Assembly (NCBI GenBank): GCA_051747585.1
Contig: JBNJGH010000020.1
Location: forward strand, 1 to 43,070
Origin: Candidatus Rifleibacteriota bacterium
Lineage (GTDB): Bacteria > Muiribacteriota > Ozemobacteria > Ozemobacterales > Ozemobacteraceae
Length of the DNA: 43,070 nucleotides
Direction: 5' to 3'
Part shown: one piece after another, positions 9,989-31,110 of the stretch
Numbering within the stretch: position 1 is the stretch's first letter
Layout of the letters: each line of letters begins with the position of its first letter
Made by a program: the position numbers and the translations under genes
Notes under the pieces: generated by a model
The model's input: only the letters and a program-made list of their open reading frames with translations
Databases searched by the model: none
Told to the model about the DNA's origin: nothing

Positions 9989-11236
9989 ATGAACAATAAC
10001 AAGGCAGGTTTTGAACAACGGCTCGAAAAGGCATTTAACCATCCGGACAGTTTTCTGGAAACGATGGCTAAAGAATTTGACCATTATGACGAAGCAAAGT
10101 TGAAAACTCTGGTAGGGGTCTTTGCGGAGGGCGGGACGGTCGAACAAAGTCTTGTTTCTGAATTTGGCGTTAAAAAGCTTGATGAACCAGCCCTGGAATT
10201 TCTGGCTACCCAACTGGATGAGAATAAACCTGAGGTTTTTATTCAGATTGCAGAAATTCTTGGGCAGCGTAATTTTATTAAAGCTCTTGATAGAATTTGG
10301 AAACCCGTAAAGGAAAACAATTCTCGACTGATAATGCCCGTAATAAAGGCTGTGTCAAAATTTGAGCAGAACAATCTGGTAGATAAGCTGCTATTAGATT
10401 TTTACCTCACCCACGAAGATGAAAGCAGGCTTTTTTCCTGTATAAGGTTCCTTTTGCCTCGACAGGAGTCTATTGTACACAAACTGCTTGAGAGTTACAG
10501 AGGGTTAGATGCTGATCGCAAAATGTGGGCTTTAAAGTTCCTTGCCGAAACCGGTAATCCCGAAGCTCTTAGGCTTTTTGCAGATGAACTCGATCATATG
10601 CCTCTCGAACGAGGGCTTTACTGTATTTCCGGCTTGGGTCGCATCGGAAAACAAGCTTCAGTAAAAATATTGTTGAAGAATATAAATCATCCTGAATGGT
10701 TTTTGCGCAAAAGGATTATTGAAGCTCTGGGGCAAACGGGGCAAGTAGAAGCTGTGCAGCCCGTAATAAAAATGCTGGAAGATGTTTCGGTGCAGGTTAG
10801 AGCTGCTGCTGTCGAAAGCTTGAGCAAACTCGGGCATCTTAATCCTGAAATGATAATAGATAAGCTTAAAAGCAGCTCGGGCGACCTTAAAATAAATTTA
10901 ATCAGGGCAATAGCTCAGTTAAAAAGCGAAAAATTTGTTGCTCCACTCATAGAAGAGCTTAATGATAAAAATACTTTGTTTTTTACCGTCGATGCTCTGG
11001 GCGATCTGGGGTCTCTTGAAGCAGAAAAACCTCTAAAAAAGCTGCTGCTAGATAAAGAGTGGTTCAATAGATTAAACGCCCTCGAGGCTTTAGCCAAGTT
11101 GCCTTTAAACAATAAAATGGTAGAAATAGCAAGAGGGCTGACAAATGATCATAATGATATGGTAAGAACCTCTGCCGCTCGCATTGTTTCCAGTAGAAGG
11201 TCAGCGGCAGAAGAAGAAGAAGAAGAGGTTAATTAA
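9989..11236 (+). CDS. HEAT/PBS-lyase repeat protein
   Basis: Repeated units such as WFLRKRIIEALG, VQVRAAAVESL, WFNRLNALEAL. Confidence 0.85.
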   Translation: MNNNKAGFEQRLEKAFNHPDSFLETMAKEFDHYDEAKLKTLVGVFAEGGTVEQSLVSEFGVKKLDEPALEFLATQLDENKPEVFIQIAEILGQRNFIKALDRIWKPVKENNSRLIMPVIKAVSKFEQNNLVDKLLLDFYLTHEDESRLFSCIRFLLPRQESIVHKLLESYRGLDADRKMWALKFLAETGNPEALRLFADELDHMPLERGLYCISGLGRIGKQASVKILLKNINHPEWFLRKRIIEALGQTGQVEAVQPVIKMLEDVSVQVRAAAVESLSKLGHLNPEMIIDKLKSSSGDLKINLIRAIAQLKSEKFVAPLIEELNDKNTLFFTVDALGDLGSLEAEKPLKKLLLDKEWFNRLNALEALAKLPLNNKMVEIARGLTNDHNDMVRTSAARIVSSRRSAAEEEEEEVN

Positions 11237-12741
11237 TCTTCGCCTTTTTTGCCGAATACAATTCGCTGGGCATTCAAAAGAATAATAATTTTATTGTCTA
11301 TTTTGCCCACACCCTTGAGATATTCAATATCTACGTTTTCACTAACTCTGGCAGGTGGCTCTATCGATGTTTCAGGTAACCTGATAACCTCTGAAACGGA
11401 ATCTACCATAAAGCCGGCTTTGACCTTTTCTTCTTCGAAGGCCAGTATGATAATCTGGCTATCTTTGAAGCTGGCTAAAGTAGGCAATTTAAGACGCCGT
11501 CTTGTATTGATAACCGGAACTATTTCACCTCTAAGGTTAATTACTCCATCTATATGTGGAGGGGCTTTGGGTACCCTGGTAATGGGAACCATGTTGATAA
11601 TCGCTTCGACCTGATGAATTTCGAGCGCATACATTTCTCCGGCCATGCCAAAAGTGACCAGCTGAACCATTTCAATGATTTCTTTGTTTTCTTCATCTTC
11701 ATCCTCATCTTCGTCTTGCTGTGGCTGCTCTGAAGACTGCTCCCCGGATGGTTGTTGGGCGGGAGCCGGAGCTGCAGCTGGTGCTGATGGAGCTGCCGGG
11801 CCCGATGAGGGTGGCGGAGAAGGTACATGAACCTCGGTTTCCTGGGGAACTTCAGCCGCCGGTTGCGGAGCGGGTTCTGCCGGAGGCGGTGAGGCACTGT
11901 CGCCAAGTGAGTCGGTAATATCTTTAAGCTCGACCGATTCAATTTCTGATATTGATTCAATACCTTCTTGTATTTGCTCGTCCTCCTGATCTGTTGTCAG
12001 GATCATTTTGAAAGAAGATTCGAATTTTTCATTTTCAAGGTCCTTGACTTCAGGTATTGATTTGACAATGTCGCAATGTGTATCATCAAGGGTTCTTAAA
12101 ACCATGAAAATACGCGGGCCTTTGAGCAGACAATCAGAAACAAGAGAAATTTTAAGCAGCACTACTCTTTTACCCTCATCTCCTGCTGCAGAAAGGCCTG
12201 ATAAATCGAAGTCACTTAATTCGAAATCTGCTATTTCAGTATTCGCCCCACCTTGAGACTGCTTTGCCGATTGGGGTTGTTCCTGACCGGCATCAGTTGC
12301 AGCTTGTGGTTGCTGGGCTGCCGGTGGAGGTGAATCCTGTGCTGCTGTTGGAACCTGTCCGTTTGCCAGTGCCGAAAGTTTGCCTGAGATTTCATCCAGG
12401 CCTACATTTGAATCTGTTTGTTCGATACTGTCGCTTACCAGAGTTCTTAAAACGTCAAAAGTTTCGAATATTATGTCTACTACTTCTGTGGTAACAGGTA
12501 TATCTTCATTGCGCAGTTTGTCTAAAACTGTTTCCATCTCATGGGTCAGGTGAGCTATTTTTTCGAAGCCCATGGTCGCCGACATACCCTTAAGGGTGTG
12601 GGCTGCACGGAAAATTTCTTCGACTGCATCAAGGTTAGAAGGGTTCTGCTCAAGGTTGAGCAGCATTTTATCCATGGTGTCGAGATTTTCCCGGGAACCG
12701 TCTATATAGGCACCCATATATTCGGAAAGATCTAGATTCAA
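11233..12741 (-). CDS. HPt (P1)-P2-CheW fusion protein lacking the kinase core
   Basis: FRAAHTLKGM HPt motif, CheA-P2-like segment, CheW-type C-terminus (ITRVPKAP..GVINLRGEIVPV). TTG start after AAGGAGG. Confidence 0.85.
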   Translation of the reverse strand: MNLDLSEYMGAYIDGSRENLDTMDKMLLNLEQNPSNLDAVEEIFRAAHTLKGMSATMGFEKIAHLTHEMETVLDKLRNEDIPVTTEVVDIIFETFDVLRTLVSDSIEQTDSNVGLDEISGKLSALANGQVPTAAQDSPPPAAQQPQAATDAGQEQPQSAKQSQGGANTEIADFELSDFDLSGLSAAGDEGKRVVLLKISLVSDCLLKGPRIFMVLRTLDDTHCDIVKSIPEVKDLENEKFESSFKMILTTDQEDEQIQEGIESISEIESVELKDITDSLGDSASPPPAEPAPQPAAEVPQETEVHVPSPPPSSGPAAPSAPAAAPAPAQQPSGEQSSEQPQQDEDEDEDEENKEIIEMVQLVTFGMAGEMYALEIHQVEAIINMVPITRVPKAPPHIDGVINLRGEIVPVINTRRRLKLPTLASFKDSQIIILAFEEEKVKAGFMVDSVSEVIRLPETSIEPPARVSENVDIEYLKGVGKIDNKIIILLNAQRIVFGKKGED

Positions 12742-15256: not shown

Positions 15257-16810
15257 TTAATAATGCTTGTATGCCCTTTCAGAAAAGAGCTTTGTGTTGA
15301 AAAAATTAAAGTTTGCTTTACAAAAATCTTCCGGAACTTTTTGCCCGTTGGTAATATAGGCAAGTGATTTCCCGGTTTCAATTAGTAGAGCAAGTAACGG
15401 GCCAAAAGTATTTGTTTCGTCGATTTTGGTGAAAATCAGATGTTCAAAACCAATATGGTCAAAACAGGTTACGGTCTCAAGCATATCGTTATATTTAGCC
15501 GTGGCTGATAAGACAAGATATTTATCGGATTCCGGCATGCGGTCTAAAAAATTGCCCAGCTCACAAAGTTCTTCGCTGTCTTTCTGGCACCTGCCGGCTG
15601 TGTCTACTATAATAAGGTCTTTGTCTAAATGCTTGTTAACTGCCTGATCAATTTCTTCCGGACGATATAAGATCTCCATGTCGACATCGATAATGCGTGC
15701 GTATTGCTGAAGTTGGTCTGCAGCTCCGATTCTAAATGTATCGAGGGTAAAAAGAGCAATGGATAACCGATTTTCTGCGCTTAAGCCATAAGAGGCTGCA
15801 ATTTTGGCTATTGTTGTAGTTTTTCCTACACCGGTTGGACCAATGAGGGCGATGATCTTAGGGCCATTGCTATTGTTGAAATTGGGGTCTGGCGAAAATT
15901 TCAATTTATTTTCCATCCACTGGCTGGTGTATTTCATTGCACTTTCAGCTTTTTGCAAATAATGTTCAGGCAATCTTTCTCTCAGGTCATAAATAACTCT
16001 GTCTGCGATTTCGACTGGAGTTTCTATATCAAGAAGATTTTTTTTGATTTGGTGAAGGACTTCAGGAAGCTTTGGCGGTTCTTTTTCAATAGTTTTGTCA
16101 AATCTCTGGTTGATTTCTCGAAGCATTGCATACATTTGGTCGAGACGTGTTTCGTATGTGTCCATTTTGTTGCTGTCAGCACGGCTTGTCTCAAAATTGC
16201 TTTGTAACGTTCCTTGACTTTTTAGATTGCCATTTGCAATTTTTTCTTGTCTTTCGCGAGTCTCTCTTACTGCTATAAGTTCTTCAAGTATTTCATCAAT
16301 CTGGGTAGATGCTATTTCCTTATCATTAAGAATCTTTTGCGATCTGGGCTCTTTGTTGCCTTCCTGATTTGAGCGCAGGCCATCGACAGCCCTGACTTTG
16401 GTTCGCGATGTTGACTTGTAGGCTCTTATTCCTTGAGAAGTGTTCTGGGCCGGTCGAATTTTTGTGGGAGGGGGGGGCGTAAAGTTGTAAGCCTCAGATT
16501 GGGCAGAAGTGTTTGTTGAGGCTGTATTAGTTTCGCTCTGGGATGAAAAAACAGGGTTTGTTTTTTTTACCTCAATCGACGGTGAAGGCCTTGAAGGAAC
16601 TTCAGTAACTACATTTTTGTTGCCTATGGGTCTGATTATTCCTACAGTGATCTCGAACATTTCTCTGTAGCCCAGGCCAAAATAAATCGGATGTTTTACT
16701 TTTTTGCTGGTAATGACTTTAAAATTATCTTTTCCGTAGGTTTTTTCAGCTTTTACTTTGGCTTCAAATAATGTGTCGCCAAGTATTTTGGCATAATCAT
16801 CAAAATGCAT
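15257..16810 (-). CDS. flhF: Flagellar SRP-family GTPase FlhF
   Basis: GPTGVGKTTTIAK, DTFRIGA, DTAGR, TKIDET, GQKVPED, plus an N-terminal B domain. Confidence 0.95.
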   Translation of the reverse strand: MHFDDYAKILGDTLFEAKVKAEKTYGKDNFKVITSKKVKHPIYFGLGYREMFEITVGIIRPIGNKNVVTEVPSRPSPSIEVKKTNPVFSSQSETNTASTNTSAQSEAYNFTPPPPTKIRPAQNTSQGIRAYKSTSRTKVRAVDGLRSNQEGNKEPRSQKILNDKEIASTQIDEILEELIAVRETRERQEKIANGNLKSQGTLQSNFETSRADSNKMDTYETRLDQMYAMLREINQRFDKTIEKEPPKLPEVLHQIKKNLLDIETPVEIADRVIYDLRERLPEHYLQKAESAMKYTSQWMENKLKFSPDPNFNNSNGPKIIALIGPTGVGKTTTIAKIAASYGLSAENRLSIALFTLDTFRIGAADQLQQYARIIDVDMEILYRPEEIDQAVNKHLDKDLIIVDTAGRCQKDSEELCELGNFLDRMPESDKYLVLSATAKYNDMLETVTCFDHIGFEHLIFTKIDETNTFGPLLALLIETGKSLAYITNGQKVPEDFCKANFNFFNTKLFSERAYKHY

Positions 16811-17745
16811 TACTGAGAAGCCTCCCCTTTAAAAAAGCTTGAAAGGCGGGTTAAAAAGCCTTCGATGCCGCTGTTTTCACTATGTTCCGGGATTTCGTGA
16901 AAAGTTGTTGAAACAATTTTTCTAATGCCATTTGCAGCAGGTGACATTGGTGAAAACAAAATTAAAGGCGTTTGCTGTCTAACTGCCAGATGCATTTGTC
17001 TATCCTGGAGAATGTTCCCCAGGTGATGAATTTTAAATTCGAGAAATTCGTCAGCTACTCTAGACAGTCTTTTGTGAATTTCAAGTCCTTCATTTTCGTT
17101 ATCTACACGATTGACAAGAAGAGAAACATGGCTGTCGGGTCTTTCGCTGCTCAAAATTTTGATTATACCGTAAGCATCGGCAAGAGCGGTCGGCTCAGTA
17201 GTTGTTATGACAATTATCTGGTCAGCGGCCTGGCAAAATGAAATAACGCTTTTGCTTATCCCGGCTCCGGTATCGATCAGCAGGTAATCAGTTTTATCTT
17301 CGAGGAATTTCAGCTGATCAAAAACCTTAGCCGCTTTGTCTGTTTCCAGTTGAGCCAACTCAGATATACCTGAACCTCCGGCAATAATTTGAATGTCATT
17401 GGGCCCTTGTACCATTACTTCATCGAGGCTCATTTGGCCATTGATTACATCCATTAGATTATGTTTGGGCCTTATGCCAAAAACAACATCTATATTGGCA
17501 AGTCCGAGGTCTGCGTCAAGAATTATAACCTTTTGACCTGCCTGGGCAAGACAAATGGCAAGATTGGCAACCAGACTGGTCTTTCCTACGCCGCCTTTAC
17601 CCGAAGTAACTGTTATTGTTCGAGCAATTTTGTTGCCGGCTTTACGTGGAGTTCTTGCCTGCAACCTTTTGAAGACATAAGGCTGAATCTCTTTGCGAGT
17701 TTCGGCTATTATTGCTTCAATTGGCTTAATTATAGGTTCGGTCAT
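16810..17745 (-). CDS. flhG: MinD-family ATPase FlhG/FleN
   Basis: SGKGGVGKT, DADLGLAN, IDTGAG, EPTALADAY, C-terminal amphipathic GFLTRLSSFF. Confidence 0.93.
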   Translation of the reverse strand: MTEPIIKPIEAIIAETRKEIQPYVFKRLQARTPRKAGNKIARTITVTSGKGGVGKTSLVANLAICLAQAGQKVIILDADLGLANIDVVFGIRPKHNLMDVINGQMSLDEVMVQGPNDIQIIAGGSGISELAQLETDKAAKVFDQLKFLEDKTDYLLIDTGAGISKSVISFCQAADQIIVITTTEPTALADAYGIIKILSSERPDSHVSLLVNRVDNENEGLEIHKRLSRVADEFLEFKIHHLGNILQDRQMHLAVRQQTPLILFSPMSPAANGIRKIVSTTFHEIPEHSENSGIEGFLTRLSSFFKGEASQ

Positions 17746-18591
17746 TTAAAATAATCCTGGTAATTGATAAATCAGACTTTCGGATAAACAATAGAGAAAA
17801 TCTCTTGAAGACGGTTCTACCGCCGTTATTCTTGCTCTAAGGTTGGCCTTGTTTTCCGGTGGAATGTAAGTGCTATTAGAAAGTACCATTCCTGCAGGGA
17901 CAAGGTCAAGAGCCAAAAATTGTTTTGCAACATTTTTTATTCTTGGACTAATAGGCTCTTCTGGTGCTGAACTGGTGGGTGATATGTCCAGAAGACCAAT
18001 TGGTGAAAAGTATCCAGATAAATGGATAGATTTAACCGCTTCATAAACGCTTAAAAGAGAATCTTTATGAAAGGGAACGGTAACGCATACTGCATCGGTT
18101 GCGTGAAGCAGGGGATAATATCTGGGTAACTCACTTGCTTTAATGCTTATCCATACCTCAGAAAAAGGCTTTAAGACTCTTGCCAGATGCTGTAAAAAAT
18201 CAATACGTCTGGCCTCTGGTCCTTTGCATATTTCTATAAACGATTCCACCTGAGGCATAATGCTTAAAGGCGTCAACCCCTGTTCGATTCGCAAAGGAGT
18301 TGGATAGCTGAGCTGAATTTGAGTTCGGGGTAGTCGTTCTTTTTCAATGAAGCCGGCTTGATCCCAATAGCAGGACCTTGGCGAGTGCTCCATCAATGCA
18401 ATTATCCAATCGATTACCGGTGGAATTCCTTTAATAATATTGTCTGGTAAAACTAAAGCCATGCAGGTAAAGGGGCAGGGCTTGACAATTGTATCTAAAA
18501 AGGTTTCGCCGTCAATCGGCTTCTTTACAGCTGTTTCAGACTGATCTACGATTTTTTTCAGTCTCCTTAATGTGGTTGCCTGGTCATTCAT
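17746..18591 (-). CDS. Degenerate FlhG-like protein (no Walker A) with DQAxxLR N-terminus
   Basis: Starts MNDQATTLR. An 81-residue segment aligns without gaps to the neighbouring FlhG (17 identities by hand count). Confidence 0.7.
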   Translation of the reverse strand: MNDQATTLRRLKKIVDQSETAVKKPIDGETFLDTIVKPCPFTCMALVLPDNIIKGIPPVIDWIIALMEHSPRSCYWDQAGFIEKERLPRTQIQLSYPTPLRIEQGLTPLSIMPQVESFIEICKGPEARRIDFLQHLARVLKPFSEVWISIKASELPRYYPLLHATDAVCVTVPFHKDSLLSVYEAVKSIHLSGYFSPIGLLDISPTSSAPEEPISPRIKNVAKQFLALDLVPAGMVLSNSTYIPPENKANLRARITAVEPSSRDFLYCLSESLIYQLPGLF

Positions 18592-18600
18592 CGTTATTCT

Positions 18601-20706
18601 TTAACCTTGTAGTGAAATTAATCCTATAGATTCAAGCTTGATTGTTGTAGGGATTTCCTGGTAGGACAATACGGTGAGTCTGGGAGCAATCCTTTCTGTC
18701 AGTCTTTTTAGACTTAGTCTTAGTGCAGAACTGCATAGCAATATTGGAGAATGGCCTTCCTGCATTACTTCTTCAATTTTATCTCTGATTTTCTCAAGCA
18801 ATTTGGTCGCAGAATTTGGATCGATTGCAAGTTGAACCGATCCATCAATTTTTTGTAAAGCATTGGCCAGAGATTGCTCCAATTGAGGGTCCAGCGAAAT
18901 AACCTTTAAAACTCCGTTTTCATCAAGCAGGGATTTACAGATATGTCTCGAAAGACCCTGTCGGGAGATTTCGGTAAGACTGTCGATTTCGGTTATTCCT
19001 TTGCAGTCAGACAAAGATTCGAGAATGTTAACCATGTTTCTGATCGAGACATTTTCTTTAAGAAGATTTTGTAGAATTTTTAGAAGACTGGATTGGCTGA
19101 CAACATCAGGTACAACTTCTTCAAGTATAAGCGGATAGTTTTCTTTGACTGTATCAAGAAGCTGTTGCAGTTCCTGGCGGCCAAGAATTTCATGGGCATT
19201 TTGACGAACTACTTCAGTCAGATGGGTCGCAATAACCGTAGATGGGTCAACAACAGTATACCCTGCCATTTCAGCTCTTTCGCGCAGCGAACTCTGTATC
19301 CAGACTGCAGGAAGACCGAATGCAGGCTCTTCGACCTCGATGCCGTTAAGTTTGCTTGTAGCAGTTCCGGGGTTCATAGCCATGAACTGGTCTGGAATTA
19401 TTTCATATTGAGCAAACTCAACCCCTTTAATTTTAAACACATAGGTAGATGGCTGTAACTGAATATTGTCGCGGATCCTGATTGGGGGAACCACCAGACC
19501 AAGATCCAGTGCTATTTGTCGCCTTATTAAAGTTATTCGGTTAAGTAGATCCCCACCTTGATTAGCATCTACCAGGGGGATAAGATTGTAACCAATTTCG
19601 AGTTCGAGGGGGTCTACGGTAAGTAAAGAAGAAACATCTTCCGGTGCGTTAGCCTCGCTTTCTTCTTCTGCCTGTTTGTCCTCGCGTTCCTGTTGCGTGG
19701 CTTGTTCGAGGTTTTTGTGCATAACATAAGCCAAGGTTGCAAAAACAAAGGATAAGAAGAGAAAGCTGAATTTTGGCAGACCGGGAATAAGCCCGAGAAA
19801 GCCCAGTAAAGCAGCGCCAATGCCAAGTACCTTGGGGTGAGATAACAATTGGGCGCTGATGTCATGACCAAGGCTTGAATCTGAACTTGCGCGGGTAACG
19901 ACAATACCTGTAGCGGTTGCAATCAAAAGAGCAGGTATCTGTGAAACAAGCCCGTCGCCGATCGTAAAGAGTGCATAGGTTTGAAGAGCGTCGTAAGCCG
20001 TTTCGCCTCTTTGAAAAATGCCGATTACCAGACCGCCCAGAAGATTGATGACTGTTATGATTATACCGGCAATCGCATCGTTTTTAACAAATTTACTCGC
20101 ACCATCCATAGCCCCGTAAAAATCGGCTTCTCGTTGTAAAGTTAAACGTCTTTGGGTAGCTTCTTCCTGATCAATTGCTCCGGCATTGAGGTCTGCATCA
20201 ATTGCCATGCCTTTGATAGGCATCGCATCCAGTGTGAACCTGGCGGCAACCTCAGCTACACGCTCTGCACCTTTGGTAATTACTATGAATTGAATCAATA
20301 CCAGTATAATAAAGACAACAAATCCTACAACGTAATTTCCGCCGACAACGAAGTTGCCGAACGCTTTGACGATTTCAATCGAAGCACCGCGCCCTGATAA
20401 AATTATACGGGTGGTCGAAACGTTAAGACTAAGGCGAAAAAGGGTGGCTATAAGCAGCATGCTTGGAAAAGCGGAAAACTGCAGTGCATCCTGGTTGTAT
20501 ATAGAAACTAGTAAAATTGTAAGAGCAAGGGCGACATTAAGGGTTAAAAAAAGGTTTAGTATCATTGCGGGCATGGGAACAACCATCATGATGACAATCG
20601 AAACCACGCCAAAAGCAAAAAGAACGTCTCTGCTTTTTAATAACGAAGCAAAGGGCACGACGTTCAAAGAACCAGCCTTTGTTTCTGCCAAAGTCGCCTC
20701 CGCCAA
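18601..20706 (-). CDS. flhA: Flagellar export gate protein FlhA
   Basis: LFRLSLNVSTTR, AEVAARFTLDAMP, FYGAMDGASKFV. Confidence 0.98.
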   Translation of the reverse strand: MAEATLAETKAGSLNVVPFASLLKSRDVLFAFGVVSIVIMMVVPMPAMILNLFLTLNVALALTILLVSIYNQDALQFSAFPSMLLIATLFRLSLNVSTTRIILSGRGASIEIVKAFGNFVVGGNYVVGFVVFIILVLIQFIVITKGAERVAEVAARFTLDAMPIKGMAIDADLNAGAIDQEEATQRRLTLQREADFYGAMDGASKFVKNDAIAGIIITVINLLGGLVIGIFQRGETAYDALQTYALFTIGDGLVSQIPALLIATATGIVVTRASSDSSLGHDISAQLLSHPKVLGIGAALLGFLGLIPGLPKFSFLFLSFVFATLAYVMHKNLEQATQQEREDKQAEEESEANAPEDVSSLLTVDPLELEIGYNLIPLVDANQGGDLLNRITLIRRQIALDLGLVVPPIRIRDNIQLQPSTYVFKIKGVEFAQYEIIPDQFMAMNPGTATSKLNGIEVEEPAFGLPAVWIQSSLRERAEMAGYTVVDPSTVIATHLTEVVRQNAHEILGRQELQQLLDTVKENYPLILEEVVPDVVSQSSLLKILQNLLKENVSIRNMVNILESLSDCKGITEIDSLTEISRQGLSRHICKSLLDENGVLKVISLDPQLEQSLANALQKIDGSVQLAIDPNSATKLLEKIRDKIEEVMQEGHSPILLCSSALRLSLKRLTERIAPRLTVLSYQEIPTTIKLESIGLISLQG

Positions 20707-24970: not shown

Positions 24971-26407
24971 TTAGAGGGCCTGGAGTCTGTCTTGTGGATT
25001 GATTATACTGGTTATTCTCACTGCAAAGTTTTCATCGATAACAACTACTTCTCCTTTGGCGATTAGCTTATTATTAACAAAAACTTCAACAGCTTCACCT
25101 GCAAGTTTATTTAACTCTACTACAGAACCAATACCCAATTCAAGAACATCTTTTATTAACATACGAGTTCTGCCTAATTCAACTGTTATTTGTAGTGGAA
25201 CATCTAAAAGTAGATCGATGTTTGACTGTAATCCAACACCCATAGGCATTTGCAGCATTCCAAATTCTGCAGGATTACCCTGAAATTGATTTGGCATTCC
25301 ACCCATTCCCGGCATTTGTCCGGGCATCTGACCTGGCATTTGTCCGCCCATTCCCGGCATCTGCCCGGGCATCTGCCCGGGCATTTGTCCCGGCATCTGC
25401 CCAGGCATCTGACCTGGCATTTGTCCGGGCATGCCCTGTCCTGGCTGCTGCTGCTGTTGCTGCTGCCCGCCGGGTTGCTGTTGATTTGGTGCTTGATTTT
25501 GCTGGCCTTGATTGCCCATTGGTATTCCTCCGGGGGGGGGTGCTGGTTTCGCTTTCTTAGGTGGTTCCTTGTCGGGTCTGGTAAGTTCAGAAGCCATCAA
25601 TTTAGCAAAATCGGCCGGTAGAAGCTGAACCATTTCTGTTTCTGCAACTTCGCCAATTTTTAAGTTGTAGCCAATTCTAAGAAAATTTGCTGTTTCACTG
25701 AAATCTGGAAGATCGGGTGGGCCTTCGGAATAATTTACGAGGAACACATCCGGGGGGGAAATGTCAACTCTTTTTTTGAAAATTTCTGAAAGTGATGTGG
25801 TTGTTTTTCCCATCATCTGGTTCATCATTTCACCAACCGCTGAAGTGTGCATTTCCTGAAATTCTGCGCCAACGCCTTCGCCGCCCATCATCAGGTCGCC
25901 GATAACTGCAGAAATCGATTTTTTTAGAACCAGATATGAATTGCCGTCGAAACCCTCTATGTATGAAATTTTGGCAAGAACAAATTCTTCTGCTCCGCCT
26001 TCATCTTTAAGATCCTGGAAGGTTACAACTCTTATCTGTTCCAGGTTGATTTCAATTTCTTTGTTGAGTAAAACCTGAACAACAGAAGAGGTTGCACCCA
26101 ACGATAACTTAGCTACTTCTGATAATTGTTCGATTGCTTCATCTGATATTTTTACTTTTGGAACATTGGCTGAATCAGATGAACCTGAGGAGTCGGAACC
26201 TTCTCCTGATGAACTTCCTCCGGCTGCTGGTGCAGGTGTTGCCTCGGGGGAGGGTTCTTCAGATGGAGCCTCTGCTACAGGCTCCTGTGGCGTTTCTGCA
26301 GGTGGAGCAGCTTGCTGGGCAGAGTCGTCTCCTGACTCTTCTTCTGAATCAGAGCCTCCGGCATTCAGCAAAGCATCAATTTCTTCTTGTGATAATAGAT
26401 CGTTCAC
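24971..26407 (-). CDS. fliY: Flagellar switch phosphatase FliY (CheC-like domain + FliN domain)
   Basis: LLSQEEIDALL, SAVGEMMNQMMG...ISPP, C-terminal SpoA/FliN domain (LLLDVPLQITVELG, GEVVVIDENF). Confidence 0.92.
   Translation of the reverse strand: MNDLLSQEEIDALLNAGGSDSEEESGDDSAQQAAPPAETPQEPVAEAPSEEPSPEATPAPAAGGSSSGEGSDSSGSSDSANVPKVKISDEAIEQLSEVAKLSLGATSSVVQVLLNKEIEINLEQIRVVTFQDLKDEGGAEEFVLAKISYIEGFDGNSYLVLKKSISAVIGDLMMGGEGVGAEFQEMHTSAVGEMMNQMMGKTTTSLSEIFKKRVDISPPDVFLVNYSEGPPDLPDFSETANFLRIGYNLKIGEVAETEMVQLLPADFAKLMASELTRPDKEPPKKAKPAPPPGGIPMGNQGQQNQAPNQQQPGGQQQQQQQPGQGMPGQMPGQMPGQMPGQMPGQMPGQMPGMGGQMPGQMPGQMPGMGGMPNQFQGNPAEFGMLQMPMGVGLQSNIDLLLDVPLQITVELGRTRMLIKDVLELGIGSVVELNKLAGEAVEVFVNNKLIAKGEVVVIDENFAVRITSIINPQDRLQAL
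25302..25465 (-). repeat. 12-bp coding tandem repeat (PGQM)n plus poly-Gln in the FliY linker
   Basis: Units such as ggcatttgtccg, ggcatctgacct, ggcatctgcccg with synonymous variation. Confidence 0.9.
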
Positions 26408-27525
26408 TCTAATTCTTCCTCCTCATCGGGGGGCTCAAGCTGGTCAGTTATAGAAATAGCCATTTTTTTGCCAATAATTCCAGGGCGGCCACGATATTTG
26501 ACCAGATTTCCTACTTTAATATTTAGATCGTCTTTTACCAGTTGATCTGTTACAAGAATATCTCCCGGGCCAAGACCAAGTATGTCCTGTAGTGCTACGG
26601 TAGCGCTTCCCAGCTCTGCAATTACCGGCAGATGAACTTCTTTTACCTGATGGCTGATTGCATCTACATTGGTCTGCATCGGCTCTTTTCTGACTGCTGC
26701 AAACCATGAAGCTGCGTTAAATTTATGAACAATGGGTTCAACCGTATTATATGGTATGCATAGGGTCATAATCCCGGTGACATCGTGAATTTTGATTTCG
26801 ATTGTAATCGAAAGGACAATTTCGGTTGGAGGAACAATCTGGGCAAATTGAGGGTTTGATTCAACCAGTTCCATGGCAGGGGCTAAATCTATGATGTTAA
26901 TCCAGGCTTCTCTGAGGCGGTCTATTATGCCGACCATAATTTTGGTCATAATCTGCTTTTCGACCTCAGTGAGCTGTCTTAATATACCCAGAGGTGTTCC
27001 GTTGCCGCCCAGAAGACGGTCGAGAATAGTAAAAACAATATTTAGATTGATATCTATCAGGGCTTTTCCGTCAAGATTGTCAGAGCGGAAAATTGTAATG
27101 AAGGTCGGATTGTAAATGGAATGAATCAGTTCTTCAAAGGTTCGTTGTTCAACCGAAATAATAGTTGCCTGAGCAAAGGCACGTAGCTTGGTTGAAAGAT
27201 CTGTTCCGACCAGCCTTGCAAAAGTTTCGTGTATGAGTTGAATGGTGTTGAGCTGTTCTTTTGAAAACTTGGTTTGCCTTTTGAAGTCGTAGTTAACAAC
27301 TTTTTTCCTGGGCTTATCTGAGTCTTCATCATCGGTATCAAAGAAAGAAGATCCGCCTTTTGCTCTTCCTGAGTCAGCTTTTGGCGCTTTCTCGGGCTCG
27401 GCAAAAGCAGCTGAGCTTTGACCACCGCCACCGGGTGGTGGAGGTGGGGCTTCTTCCTCTTCATCGCCGGTGCTCAAGGCAGATAGTAGAGCGTCTATTT
27501 CACTTTGCGACAGTGTGTCAACCAT
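26404..27525 (-). CDS. fliM: Flagellar motor switch protein FliM
   Basis: LSQSEIDALL, YDFKRQTKFSKEQ, ESNPQFAQIV. Confidence 0.97.
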   Translation of the reverse strand: MVDTLSQSEIDALLSALSTGDEEEEAPPPPPGGGGQSSAAFAEPEKAPKADSGRAKGGSSFFDTDDEDSDKPRKKVVNYDFKRQTKFSKEQLNTIQLIHETFARLVGTDLSTKLRAFAQATIISVEQRTFEELIHSIYNPTFITIFRSDNLDGKALIDINLNIVFTILDRLLGGNGTPLGILRQLTEVEKQIMTKIMVGIIDRLREAWINIIDLAPAMELVESNPQFAQIVPPTEIVLSITIEIKIHDVTGIMTLCIPYNTVEPIVHKFNAASWFAAVRKEPMQTNVDAISHQVKEVHLPVIAELGSATVALQDILGLGPGDILVTDQLVKDDLNIKVGNLVKYRGRPGIIGKKMAISITDQLEPPDEEEELE

Positions 27526-28353: not shown

Positions 28354-31110
28354 TTACCTCTTAAGATTTACAACTTCCTGAAGAATTTCGTCGGAAGTGG
28401 TTATAACTCTTGAATTAGCCTGAAAGGCTCTTTGAGTGGTAATCATATTGGTGAATTCTTCAGAAATATCAACGTTACTCATTTCAAGAGAAGCAGGAAC
28501 AATGACGCCACGATCCATCTCGCCGGCTTTTCCTACTATTGGCTGGCCCGAATTAGGAGAAAATGAATACAGATTCTTACCCATCTTTTCAAGCCCACCC
28601 GGATTATTAAAGGTCGTCAGCGCCATTTGCCCGATTGGTTGCTTCTGACCATTACTGTAAACGCCACGAATGATTCCGTCTTCTTCAAAGTATATTTGCT
28701 CAAGCAGACCCATTTCGTAACCGTCCTGGCTTCTCGCTTTTGTGGTGAAGTCAGAGTCAAATTGAGTTATAAGCTCAGTGTCTAATTTAATACTTAAAGG
28801 ATTGCTTCCTTCCGGTTTCATTTTAACGTCTTGAACGAATGAGCGACCAAGATCGATTTTTCCGTTTTCTTGGAAAAACAGTGTGCCTTCGCGATCGGTA
28901 AGTAATGCATCGTTGGCGCGTTCAAGGTCGTCATCGGTAGGATCCTCGGGGTCAGCTATGTTGTTGGCAGGATCTTTAAGCCAGGCTTGAATTTCGGGAT
29001 CATCATCGGAATATCTGACCTTGTAAATCCACTCCATAGATTCGCTGTTAGTATGTTCCCATTCTGTAACAAGTCCATGTTTCGCACCCAGGGAATCATA
29101 AACGATTATGTTGGTAGAATGCTTTGCTCCCTCGTTTACTGCCCCGGTAATTTCGAAGGTTTCATCATTAACAGTAGTAGCAAATTTAAGAGTTTCTGAC
29201 GAAGGCTGAGGCACATATATGTTAACTGAGTCTGAAGCACCTTTTTCTTCAGTGGTACTGAAATTCATGGTTTCGTTAGGCAACCATTGGTTTAAGCCTT
29301 CAGTAAGAGTGAATGAAAGGCCACCAGAGTCGAACTCACTTATCGCAGCTGTGCCATTGGTTGTGCCGGCACTTAAGCCAAGCTGATTCATACTGTTGTT
29401 ACCCGAAAGAATTACCTGTTCACCAGATCCTGACTTGGAACCGGTTATAACCAGCTGATCAGGACTCCCGTCATTGTTGGTATCTGAAAAAGAGGCTGTC
29501 GCAGAAACGTTTTCCTGAGCAAGCTTCGAGTTGATCTCCGCCAGAATTGCGCCCCTGGTATAGATCTGATTGTTTCCTGCAAGCTCATCGCTGAAGCTTA
29601 TTAAAGCAGAATGTCCGTCTCGGTCGGTTATAGTAAAGCTTACATCGCTGGCCGGATCCCATACGTCATTTGCCGGATCATAGGCCGTGCTGTTTGCAAT
29701 TGCCAAAGCTTCGTCACTGAAAACTTCAGGCCGTGCACCACCAGTCCCGTTTGCAACCTCTTCGGTAAACCCAAGGTCAGCGAAATCGCCGGACGAATTG
29801 AGAATTTCGATTTCCTTATTGCTGCCTTCTTCGTTGCTTACAATTTGAAATTGTTGGGTAACAGAGTCGTAATATGCAGAAGCTCTTACGCCATTGTTTT
29901 TCATAGCCGTATTGATGTTATCTGTTATATCAGAGGTAGAATAAGTAGTACCGGCATCGAAATTTACAGTGGCGACTCTAGGTGGGTTGAACTGATTGTC
30001 TGCTATGTCAAAGGATGTGTTTGTTGCAGGAGTCCAATTTGCCCCAAAACCAACTGTAGTTCCTTTAATTCTAGCTTGTTCTCCACCCAGGGTTCCTGCA
30101 CCAATAAAGCCGCGTTCTGAGCCTACAACTCTATAAGAAGTTGCTCGGGTGGGATCGCCACCATCGAAGATTATTTGAACGTTTTCGTCTGTAACTTCAT
30201 TGCCTTCGGCCAATACTCCGGAACTGATGCCATCCCCCGTATTGCTTATTTCATTTATAGGCATTGTCGCAGTTGCGGGTTGAGGACTTCCGTCAGGGTC
30301 GTAGGTGAAGTAAGGCTCTGACGTTGTTGAGGTATCGCCACTAGGTTCTACGGAACTTTCTATAACATTTCCGCTGGCATCAGTTTTGATAGTGCCTGTT
30401 GCAACATTTCCCTCGCTTTCGTCATTTGCCGACCAGATCCAGTTTGTTGAATCCAGCTTTTTGAATTTGAACGAAAGGTTCTGAAAATTGCCTTCACTAT
30501 CTTTAAATGTAAGTGTATCCAGACCAAATTTAATGTCTCTTTCTTCAGAGCCGCTGTCAAGATTTGAGGCATAATGAATTTCGTTGGTCTGATGAGAATG
30601 TTTTTTAAGATACTTGGTAATATTTATGTCGTATGGCACGACCCCGGTTTCTTTCATTTCAAGGTTCCCGGTCTCGGGATCCTGGGTAGCTAACCAGCCT
30701 TGCATTTTGTAGCCGGTGTTGGCCATAACCATATCGTAGTTAGGATTTATGTTTAGATTTCCGTCTCTTGTGTAGTATGTGTTTCCATCATACCCTCTGG
30801 TGGCAAAGAACCCGGAACCTTCGATGGCAACATCGGTTTGTTTCCCGGTTCCTTCTATGGCACCCTGGTCCATCAGAGTGTCAATCGAAGCATTCTTAAC
30901 GCCCAGACCAACCTGCATCGGGTTTAAACCTCCGTAAGATCCGAAGGCTTGCTGTCCATGTCTTAGTGTCTGTGAAAACAGATCCTGAAACATGACTCGA
31001 CCTCTTTTAAATGCAGTTGTATTGACGTTGGAAATATTATTACTTACAACGTCCATTTTTGTCTGGTGCTGCTTAAGACCCGTTACTCCCGTAAATAAAG
31101 ATCTAATCAT
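28354..31110 (-). CDS. flgE: Flagellar hook protein FlgE, unusually large (918 aa)
   Basis: MIRSLFTGVTGL, NNISNVNT, YTRDG, LEMSNVDISEEFTNMITTQRAFQANSR. Confidence 0.95.
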   Translation of the reverse strand: MIRSLFTGVTGLKQHQTKMDVVSNNISNVNTTAFKRGRVMFQDLFSQTLRHGQQAFGSYGGLNPMQVGLGVKNASIDTLMDQGAIEGTGKQTDVAIEGSGFFATRGYDGNTYYTRDGNLNINPNYDMVMANTGYKMQGWLATQDPETGNLEMKETGVVPYDINITKYLKKHSHQTNEIHYASNLDSGSEERDIKFGLDTLTFKDSEGNFQNLSFKFKKLDSTNWIWSANDESEGNVATGTIKTDASGNVIESSVEPSGDTSTTSEPYFTYDPDGSPQPATATMPINEISNTGDGISSGVLAEGNEVTDENVQIIFDGGDPTRATSYRVVGSERGFIGAGTLGGEQARIKGTTVGFGANWTPATNTSFDIADNQFNPPRVATVNFDAGTTYSTSDITDNINTAMKNNGVRASAYYDSVTQQFQIVSNEEGSNKEIEILNSSGDFADLGFTEEVANGTGGARPEVFSDEALAIANSTAYDPANDVWDPASDVSFTITDRDGHSALISFSDELAGNNQIYTRGAILAEINSKLAQENVSATASFSDTNNDGSPDQLVITGSKSGSGEQVILSGNNSMNQLGLSAGTTNGTAAISEFDSGGLSFTLTEGLNQWLPNETMNFSTTEEKGASDSVNIYVPQPSSETLKFATTVNDETFEITGAVNEGAKHSTNIIVYDSLGAKHGLVTEWEHTNSESMEWIYKVRYSDDDPEIQAWLKDPANNIADPEDPTDDDLERANDALLTDREGTLFFQENGKIDLGRSFVQDVKMKPEGSNPLSIKLDTELITQFDSDFTTKARSQDGYEMGLLEQIYFEEDGIIRGVYSNGQKQPIGQMALTTFNNPGGLEKMGKNLYSFSPNSGQPIVGKAGEMDRGVIVPASLEMSNVDISEEFTNMITTQRAFQANSRVITTSDEILQEVVNLKR

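Follow-up and report, generated by a model that had tools for sequence, protein, structure and literature searches.

How the ATP cycle of FlhG is tied to the activation of FlhF and to the assembly of the C-ring is an open question, and it could be addressed with a flagellar locus of a Candidatus Rifleibacteriota bacterium (GenBank assembly GCA_051747585.1, contig JBNJGH010000020.1) in which two adjacent genes of FlhG type are found. The window, i.e. the whole stretch of DNA that was analysed, is this contig at its full length of 43,070 nucleotides (nt), and the genome it belongs to is 93.6% complete. The first of the two genes (17746..18591, on the minus strand as are all features of the window below) encodes a protein of 281 amino acids (aa) starting with MNDQATTLR, here called X and described below as an FlhG-derived pseudo-ATPase, and the second (16810..17745) encodes a 311-aa FlhG starting with MTEPIIKP and carrying the deviant Walker A sequence GKGGVGKT at residues 49–56 (17578..17601). 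They are followed by the gene of FlhF, a 517-aa GTPase of the signal recognition particle (SRP) type (15257..16810). The stop codon of X abuts the start codon of the 311-aa FlhG (TTTTAA directly followed by ATG, 17746/17745) and the 311-aa FlhG overlaps FlhF by one base (TAATG, at 16810); the open reading frames (ORFs) and junctions were rechecked and are, together with the starts and the Walker A sequence, as a preliminary description of this DNA had given them.

The analysis points, with a probability that we put at roughly 65%, to a division of the jobs of FlhG, in which X would be a nucleotide-free, non-membrane activator of FlhF and adaptor to the C-ring while the 311-aa copy would be the ATP-dependent, dimerising membrane ATPase. 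This reading builds on homology, fold, reciprocal motif loss, conservation, an acidic former membrane-targeting sequence (MTS), gene order and intermediates as seen in sequences and models, the functions being taken from known FlhG biology.

Relationship of X to FlhG

When X was compared with the 311-aa FlhG by pairwise BLASTP no homology was detected (best E 0.64), scans of X with Pfam and NCBIfam gave no match, and a Pfam search across the 61 members of the X family gave four families, each in one member (E 0.025–0.087). A gapless alignment of 81 residues (X 157–237, 311-aa FlhG 166–246), for which 17 identities had been reported, was reproduced exactly. The identity count is marginal, at least 17 being reached in 11 of 300 shuffles, and the BLOSUM score of 40 was reached in none of them (mean -0.4, standard deviation 7.3, maximum 27).

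An alignment consisting of X and 60 of the 66 proteins from a homologue search (n = 61; five fragments and one near-identical protein omitted) contains 16 invariant columns. The profile of this alignment, run against all PDB sequences, found the FlhG of G. thermodenitrificans (4RZ2/4RZ3) first with E 5e-6, followed by FleN of P. aeruginosa (E 0.005–0.006), with no other entry below E 0.5, and against 1.84 billion representatives it found 121 proteins, about 30 family members and then mostly ordinary FlhGs. HHalign gave a probability of 90 (E 1.6e-6) with the lineage's own FlhG and of 99.2 (E 1.4e-19, residues 1–244; reversed control 0.2) with 45 canonical FlhGs, the latter value being favourably biased because these 45 were drawn from the weak matches of the profile itself.

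The structure model of X (predicted local distance difference test, pLDDT, 85.8) had 4rz2 as its best Foldseek match (E 4e-8), and in a structural alignment among 48,161 chains FlhG was best (Z 17.8, root mean square deviation (rmsd) 3.2, 218 residues aligned) and FleN next (12.6). Superposition on 4RZ2 gave Z 18.1 and rmsd 3.2 over 215 residues, the C-terminal helix superposing as far as residue 286. X is a true paralogue of FlhG, with a MinD-like SIMIBI fold nearest to that of FlhG, and the homology is carried by profiles and structure, beyond the reach of single-sequence tools. It gives a name to a gene family that is currently annotated as hypothetical and has been overlooked by Pfam and NCBIfam. 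A MinD-like fold and the conservation of DQAxxLR had been set beforehand as tests able to refute the reading; profile, Foldseek and structural alignment all favour FlhG, and neither test refuted it.

Features kept and lost in X

The activator motif DQAxxLR, in X the sequence DQATTLR (residues 3–9, 18565..18585, inside a predicted helix at 4–20), is present in 59 of the 61 aligned homologues, the two misses beginning downstream of the motif, and D3, Q4 and A5 are kept in all 59 sequences that cover them. DQAxxLR is present in 34 of the 37 genomic copies, NQAxxLQ replaces it in two, and the copy of genome G019 has lost the helix; a conservation of the motif among the orthologues is thereby supported. 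Across the six frames of the genome under study the DQAxxLR string occurs six times, and that of X is the only one at the start of an ORF.

The deviant Walker A GKGGxGK[ST] was found in none of the 37 genomic copies, and two of the 61 aligned sequences contain a bare GK[ST] at some position. The former P-loop, which aligns to GKGGVGKT (residues 49–58, PDNIIKGIPP, 18418..18447), is bounded by prolines, has neither a Gly-rich loop nor the lysine pair and shows a conservation of 0.45 (residues 50–58). In switch I WDQA is aligned to LDAD, with the first Asp retained and the catalytic second replaced by Ala, Gly or Ser, and switch II is gone, S-I-K-A-S standing in place of the DTGAG region. The WDQA (residues 76–79) was also considered as a second activator motif and rejected, the profile alignment identifying it as the former switch I strand.

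The C-terminal helix of X (residues 264–274, 17770..17802) is the equivalent of the MTS according to global profile alignment and superposition, and it is acidic, with a mean net charge of -1.56 and a hydrophobic moment of 0.40 compared with +2.09 and 0.60 in the 311-aa FlhG; judged from its sequence, X does not qualify as having a basic amphipathic MTS. X would work in the manner of the FlhG monomer, and because Walker A, switch motifs and basic MTS all fail it was filed as an FlhG-derived pseudo-ATPase and not as an FlhG.

Conservation, 0.61 over the whole of X, is highest in three segments, alpha6 (0.86), alpha7 (0.85) and activator helix (0.83). The alpha6/alpha7 face (residues 183–238, 17878..18045) contains K187 and F225, each in 61 of 61 sequences, and R217, which is Arg in 49 and Lys in 12 aligned homologues, and in a gapless alignment the three fall on chain positions 185, 215 and 223 of 4RZ2/4RZ3. 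From the residue types, and with the chain numbering ending at 287, we infer an offset of eight residues that makes these positions K177, R207 and F215 of G. thermodenitrificans, which are reported as necessary for binding of FliY/FliM in the available parts of 10.1101/2022.04.21.489128 and PMC12327844. X carries the alpha6/alpha7 residues for a predicted binding of FliY/FliM. That this face is the best conserved surface of X, and that the MTS-equivalent helix has turned acidic, go beyond the preliminary description. Compared with FleN in its apo form and bound to adenylyl imidodiphosphate, the model of X gave Z 14.3 and 13.2 and that of the 311-aa protein 27.3 and 32.1, a difference too slight to be given weight.

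The 311-aa FlhG

The 311-aa FlhG was aligned with 84 of the 120 matches listed (n = 85). Walker A is present in all 85 sequences, D77, D79 and D158 are invariant, and the protein keeps the invariant signature lysine, DAD, DTGAG and D190. DQAxxLR was found in none of the 85 homologues, nor was the loose pattern QxxxLR, and the motif is present in 0 of the 37 genomic copies. The lack of DQAxxLR described earlier is thereby extended to the relatives and also refined, as the N-terminus is not decayed and consists of a distinct, lineage-specific and strongly conserved extension (residues 1–41, 17623..17745). In this extension I20 and R27 are invariant, P22 is found in 83 of 85 and Q21 in 60 of 85 sequences (H in 14, K in 4, E in 3, R in 2, T and A in one each), and the model places a helix at residues 9–24 and has pLDDT below 50 at residues 24–37.

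Compared with 4RZ2 the model of the 311-aa protein gave Z 34.8. Its C-terminal helix (residues 293–305, 16831..16869), a helix also in the model, is by charge and moment of the basic amphipathic kind and is a predicted MTS, and the face formed by K196, R226 and F234 is kept as well. The MinD equivalog TIGR01968 scores 130, below its cut-off of 213. At E<=1e-20 each genome of the X family gives a single FlhG-like ATPase match, a second one in genome G007 being the same gene split by a contig end, and in the genome under study, at its completeness of 93.6%, no further FlhG-like ATPase and no further N-terminal DQAxxLR was found. As an FlhG that lacks the activator, the 311-aa protein resembles FleN.

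Distribution and origin of the two genes

The source labels of the X homologues are mostly Ca. Riflebacteria or Ozemobacteraceae. X is found in 50 of the 51 genomes of the family, the one without it being 82% complete, and the copies have open frames, the exceptions being one with an internal stop and two cut by contig ends. A search for X in 36 other genomes of the phylum gave a single weak match, to an ordinary FlhG.

In the sister families 11 of 24 genomes carry flhG at this position as a tandem pair. Four of these (G039, G045, G048 and G054, from the families f4, f8 and f9) have Walker A in both copies and DQAxxLR only in the upstream one, and f7 has an upstream copy that carries DQLSDLR and has diverged strongly. 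At FlhG position 86 all 11 downstream copies have an Asp that none of the 11 upstream copies has kept. Among the 13 sister genomes with one copy, DQAxxLR is present in both genomes of f5, and DQIxxLR in six of the seven of f3, where the remaining copy is cut by a contig end; the others belong to f6, which is treated below. In two f6 genomes (G050, locus L044, and G041, locus L035) the FlhG matches cross stop codons near the C-terminus, the copies being 273–281 aa long and lacking the usual MTS tail. For five genomes without the motif a pattern search for a relocated activator, which covered some codons and ATG starts only, gave 14 pattern matches, and the five regions checked were chance.

Two trees were used, one of the whole domain (40 of 67 non-X rows) and one of the core region (36 of 79 rows). 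In the latter the 311-aa FlhG joins the DQA-less copies of f2, f6, f8 and f9 (96/95), and not those of f4 or f7. The duplication likely predates the X family, and the sister families preserve an intermediate with two ATPases and one activator, which supports the origin by duplication that had been suggested. On this reading all the steps would still be visible in the phylum: one flhG alone, a pair of ATPases with an activator in one of them, and a dead together with a live ATPase. In the order of events proposed, the gene was first duplicated in tandem, after which the downstream copy lost the activator and finally, in the X family, the upstream copy lost its ATP site. The locus illustrates cleanly how a duplicated gene becomes a pseudo-enzyme, and its intermediates are still living.

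Proposed division of the FlhG functions between two genes

In the available parts of PMC12826062, PMC12327844, PMC6803595 and PMC11407121, the Gln of DQAxxLR is described as stimulating FlhF and as co-catalytic, the binding of FlhG to FliY/FliM as nucleotide-independent, the FlhG monomer as burying its MTS in a groove, and the ATP dimer alone as binding the membrane and partners such as FlrA or GpsB. X keeps the nucleotide-independent parts and has lost those for dimer and membrane, and the 311-aa copy has lost the activator only, which is why X is read as the likely activator and adaptor and the 311-aa copy as the likely ATPase; set against the known FlhG biology, the split tracks the boundary between monomer and dimer. 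X would stimulate the GTPase of FlhF through the glutamine of DQAxxLR, ride the EIDAL-type N-termini of FliM and FliY and switch FlhF off at the growing basal body. The 311-aa ATPase would run its cycle on the membrane, and would use the same face together with its new N-terminal helix to bind partners of its own. FliY (24971-26407) and FliM (26404-27525) both have the EIDAL motif at their N-termini, so either of them could serve as the dock. A bolder and tentative extension, to which we give somewhat less than an even chance, is that the two conformational states of FlhG have become two genes, with a monomer-frozen pseudo-ATPase as the C-ring-borne activator of FlhF and a free ATPase taking the membrane state, perhaps with a MinD-like job in cells without MinCD.

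Several observations weigh against this division. The X orthologue of G019 (96% complete; L013:1450-2256) has an intact body and no activator helix, the six genomes of f2 (loci L031, L037, L045, L050, L052 and L054) have two tandem copies with DQAxxLR in neither, and in f6 three single copies are full-length without DQAxxLR, a fourth being cut. The reciprocal motif loss proposed for the relatives therefore stands across the X family and meets counter-cases in G019, f2 and f6, where FlhF apparently runs without this activator, as in Pseudomonas. In Vibrio the motif is reported, in the available part of 10.1101/2022.03.19.484964, to be dispensable for the negative effect of FlhG at equalised protein levels, and its weight in vivo is disputed there. 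As K196, R226 and F234 are kept in the 311-aa FlhG, binding to the C-ring need not belong to X alone. A docked C-terminal helix was considered as a trait specific to X and rejected, since the single-chain model of the 311-aa protein shows such a helix as well, which makes it no evidence specific to X. Regarding the history, X is placed by neither tree (its stem in the core-region tree has more than 6 changes per column), and the less resolved whole-domain tree has the 311-aa clade in a polytomy and groups f6 with f5; with the polytomy, and the trees at odds on f6, they fall short of showing a single duplication.

Another possibility, compatible with the division proposed here and to which we give about one chance in four, is that the split freed the ATPase for a MinD-like marking of the pole or division site where MinCD is absent, leaving X as the main flagellar FlhG. 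A survey of MinC_C in the genomes G000–G060 found it at full length in the single-flhG families f3 (7/7) and f6 (4/4). The families with two copies (f1, f2, f4, f7, f8 and f9) gave no full-length match, only one of 45 residues over the cut-off in genome G010 and weak partial ones; in the genome under study no MinC_C match was found. FlhG of C. jejuni has a role in division without MinD (PMC12826062 and the available part of PMC6803595). However, f5 with its single copy also lacks MinC (0/2), the families are kin and not independent draws, many of the genomes are incomplete, and the ATPase is still coupled to flhF and keeps residues specific to FlhG.

Rather unlikely, and slightly less probable than the MinD-like job, is an obligate heterodimer of X with the 311-aa ATPase that would rebuild the complete FlhG switch, the ATPase giving ATP and membrane binding and X the activator helix. 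The preliminary description had raised the heterodimer, and the adjacency and translational coupling of the genes, seen in 37 of 37 loci, speak for it, as do the new conserved N-terminal helix of the ATPase, which needs a partner, and the X body kept without activator in G019, which would give this body a second role. For their cohesion MinD-type dimers depend on ATP, on the signature lysine and on the switch regions (in part after the available text of PMC12826062 and 10.1101/2022.03.19.484964). The lack of P-loop, switch regions and signature lysine in X argues against an ATP sandwich of this type, and the invariant signature lysine, DAD, DTGAG and D190 of the ATPase fit a homodimer. Two planctomycete genomes (G087 and G088) furthermore have one FlhG, with DQAxxLR and a damaged Walker A, and gave no second one at E<=1e-15, which indicates that a copy weakened in this way is able to persist with no ATPase beside it.

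More doubtful still is that the DQAxxLR of X no longer activates, X being a chaperone of the C-ring or a decoy, and that the helix with IQPYVFKR in the ATPase, possibly a worn DQAxxLR, activates FlhF instead. Q21 lies 28 residues before Walker A, which is the usual spacing, within a strongly conserved stretch, and one X (G019) lacks the helix; yet no more than 60 of the 85 sequences keep Q21 while I20, P22 and R27 are near-invariant, which is wrong for a catalytic residue, and D3, Q4 and A5 of X are kept in 59 of 59. That X is a decaying, pseudogene-like leftover or resembles FlhG by chance, as the failure of BLASTP, Pfam and NCBIfam and its very long branch might suggest, is refuted by its open frames in 50 of 51 family genomes, the invariant columns and the profile and structure matches to FlhG.

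Comparison with known systems

The FlhG/YlxH of B. subtilis and G. thermodenitrificans (4RZ2, 4RZ3) resembles the present system in fold, DQAxxLR helix, K177/R207/F215 face, flhF operon and a C-ring protein of FliY type. In these bacteria activator, ATPase and MTS are found in one chain and flhG follows flhF, whereas here two genes precede flhF and the chain bearing the activator has no ATP site. FleN of P. aeruginosa is, like the 311-aa protein, an ATPase of the FlhG family without DQAxxLR, as reported in PMC12713375, the available part of which describes no activator-bearing pseudo-ATPase as its partner, and the 311-aa protein differs from it by its own conserved N-terminal extension. The 311-aa copy is similar to MinD in its deviant Walker A, its MTS and the lack of an activator helix, and differs in keeping FlhG-type residues and a place in a flagellar operon, no full-length match to MinC being found in the family genomes searched.

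A planctomycete FlhG (P0275, L072:6001-6867) is similar to X in having kept DQAxxLR together with a Walker A without the second lysine. Unlike X it stands alone, in the usual order flhA-flhF-flhG-fliA, no second FlhG being found in the two genomes named above; it is far less diverged and is probably a separate event. P0219, P0245, P0279 and P0288 likewise keep DQAxxLR and have lost the P-loop lysine or have a degenerate loop; when the context of P0245 was looked up, one metagenome locus with an ordinary flhA-flhF-flhG-fliA cluster was obtained and the context of P0245 itself was not found. These ATPase-damaged FlhGs suggest that the module of activator and C-ring binding may work without ATP more widely. 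P0254 and P0249, proteins of 400–475 aa, combine an alpha6/alpha7 stretch like that of FlhG with extra domains and have no Walker A; they are possibly further FlhG-derived pseudo-ATPases.

Literature searches, covering few subscription papers, found no report of a split or duplicated FlhG, and the main text of a 2025 review (PMC12826062) mentions none; according to this review the diversification of the FlhF-FlhG switch outside model flagellates is largely unknown. The components are individually known, the organisms are represented by genome assemblies, and the functions are deduced. The locus provides a natural separation-of-function pair, in which X would show whether activating FlhF and docking on the C-ring require a nucleotide cycle and the 311-aa protein isolates the state of ATP and membrane binding.

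Gene order and neighbouring genes

The cluster in the window has the order fliM-fliY-cheY-fliO-fliP-fliQ-fliR-flhB-flhA-X-flhG-flhF-cheA. NCBIfam names flhA, flhF, fliY, fliM and a CheA-type protein, and the genes between are, from their sequences, presumably cheY, fliO, fliP, fliQ, fliR and flhB. FlhA (18601..20706, NCBIfam) lies directly upstream of X with a gap of 9 nt, and the order flhA-X-flhG is found in 37 of 37 loci, flhF being next in 25 of these short loci and placed there in most others. In the X family, and throughout the phylum wherever both genes fall in the fetched stretch, flhG adjoins flhF on the upstream side, opposite to the arrangement called constant in PMC12826062, in which flhG immediately follows flhF. 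A scan for promoters and terminators was at chance level, with 11 promoter-like sites (8.7 +/- 2.7 expected) and one terminator (3.5 expected).

The 517-aa FlhF scores 175.2 with the NCBIfam FlhF model (cut-off 174.15), and the motifs G1–G5 are all present (GPTGVGKT, DTFR, DTAG, TKID and GQKVP). FliY has a long linker of Gly/Gln/Met/Pro repeats. Directly after the full cheA a 502-aa protein is encoded (11233-12741) with an N-terminal CheA-like Hpt region (CheA match at residues 6–284), a linker rich in Pro, Gln and acidic residues, a C-terminal CheW domain and no kinase match. Further along in the window FlgE (28354-31110) is unusually long, with 918 aa and a large central insertion.

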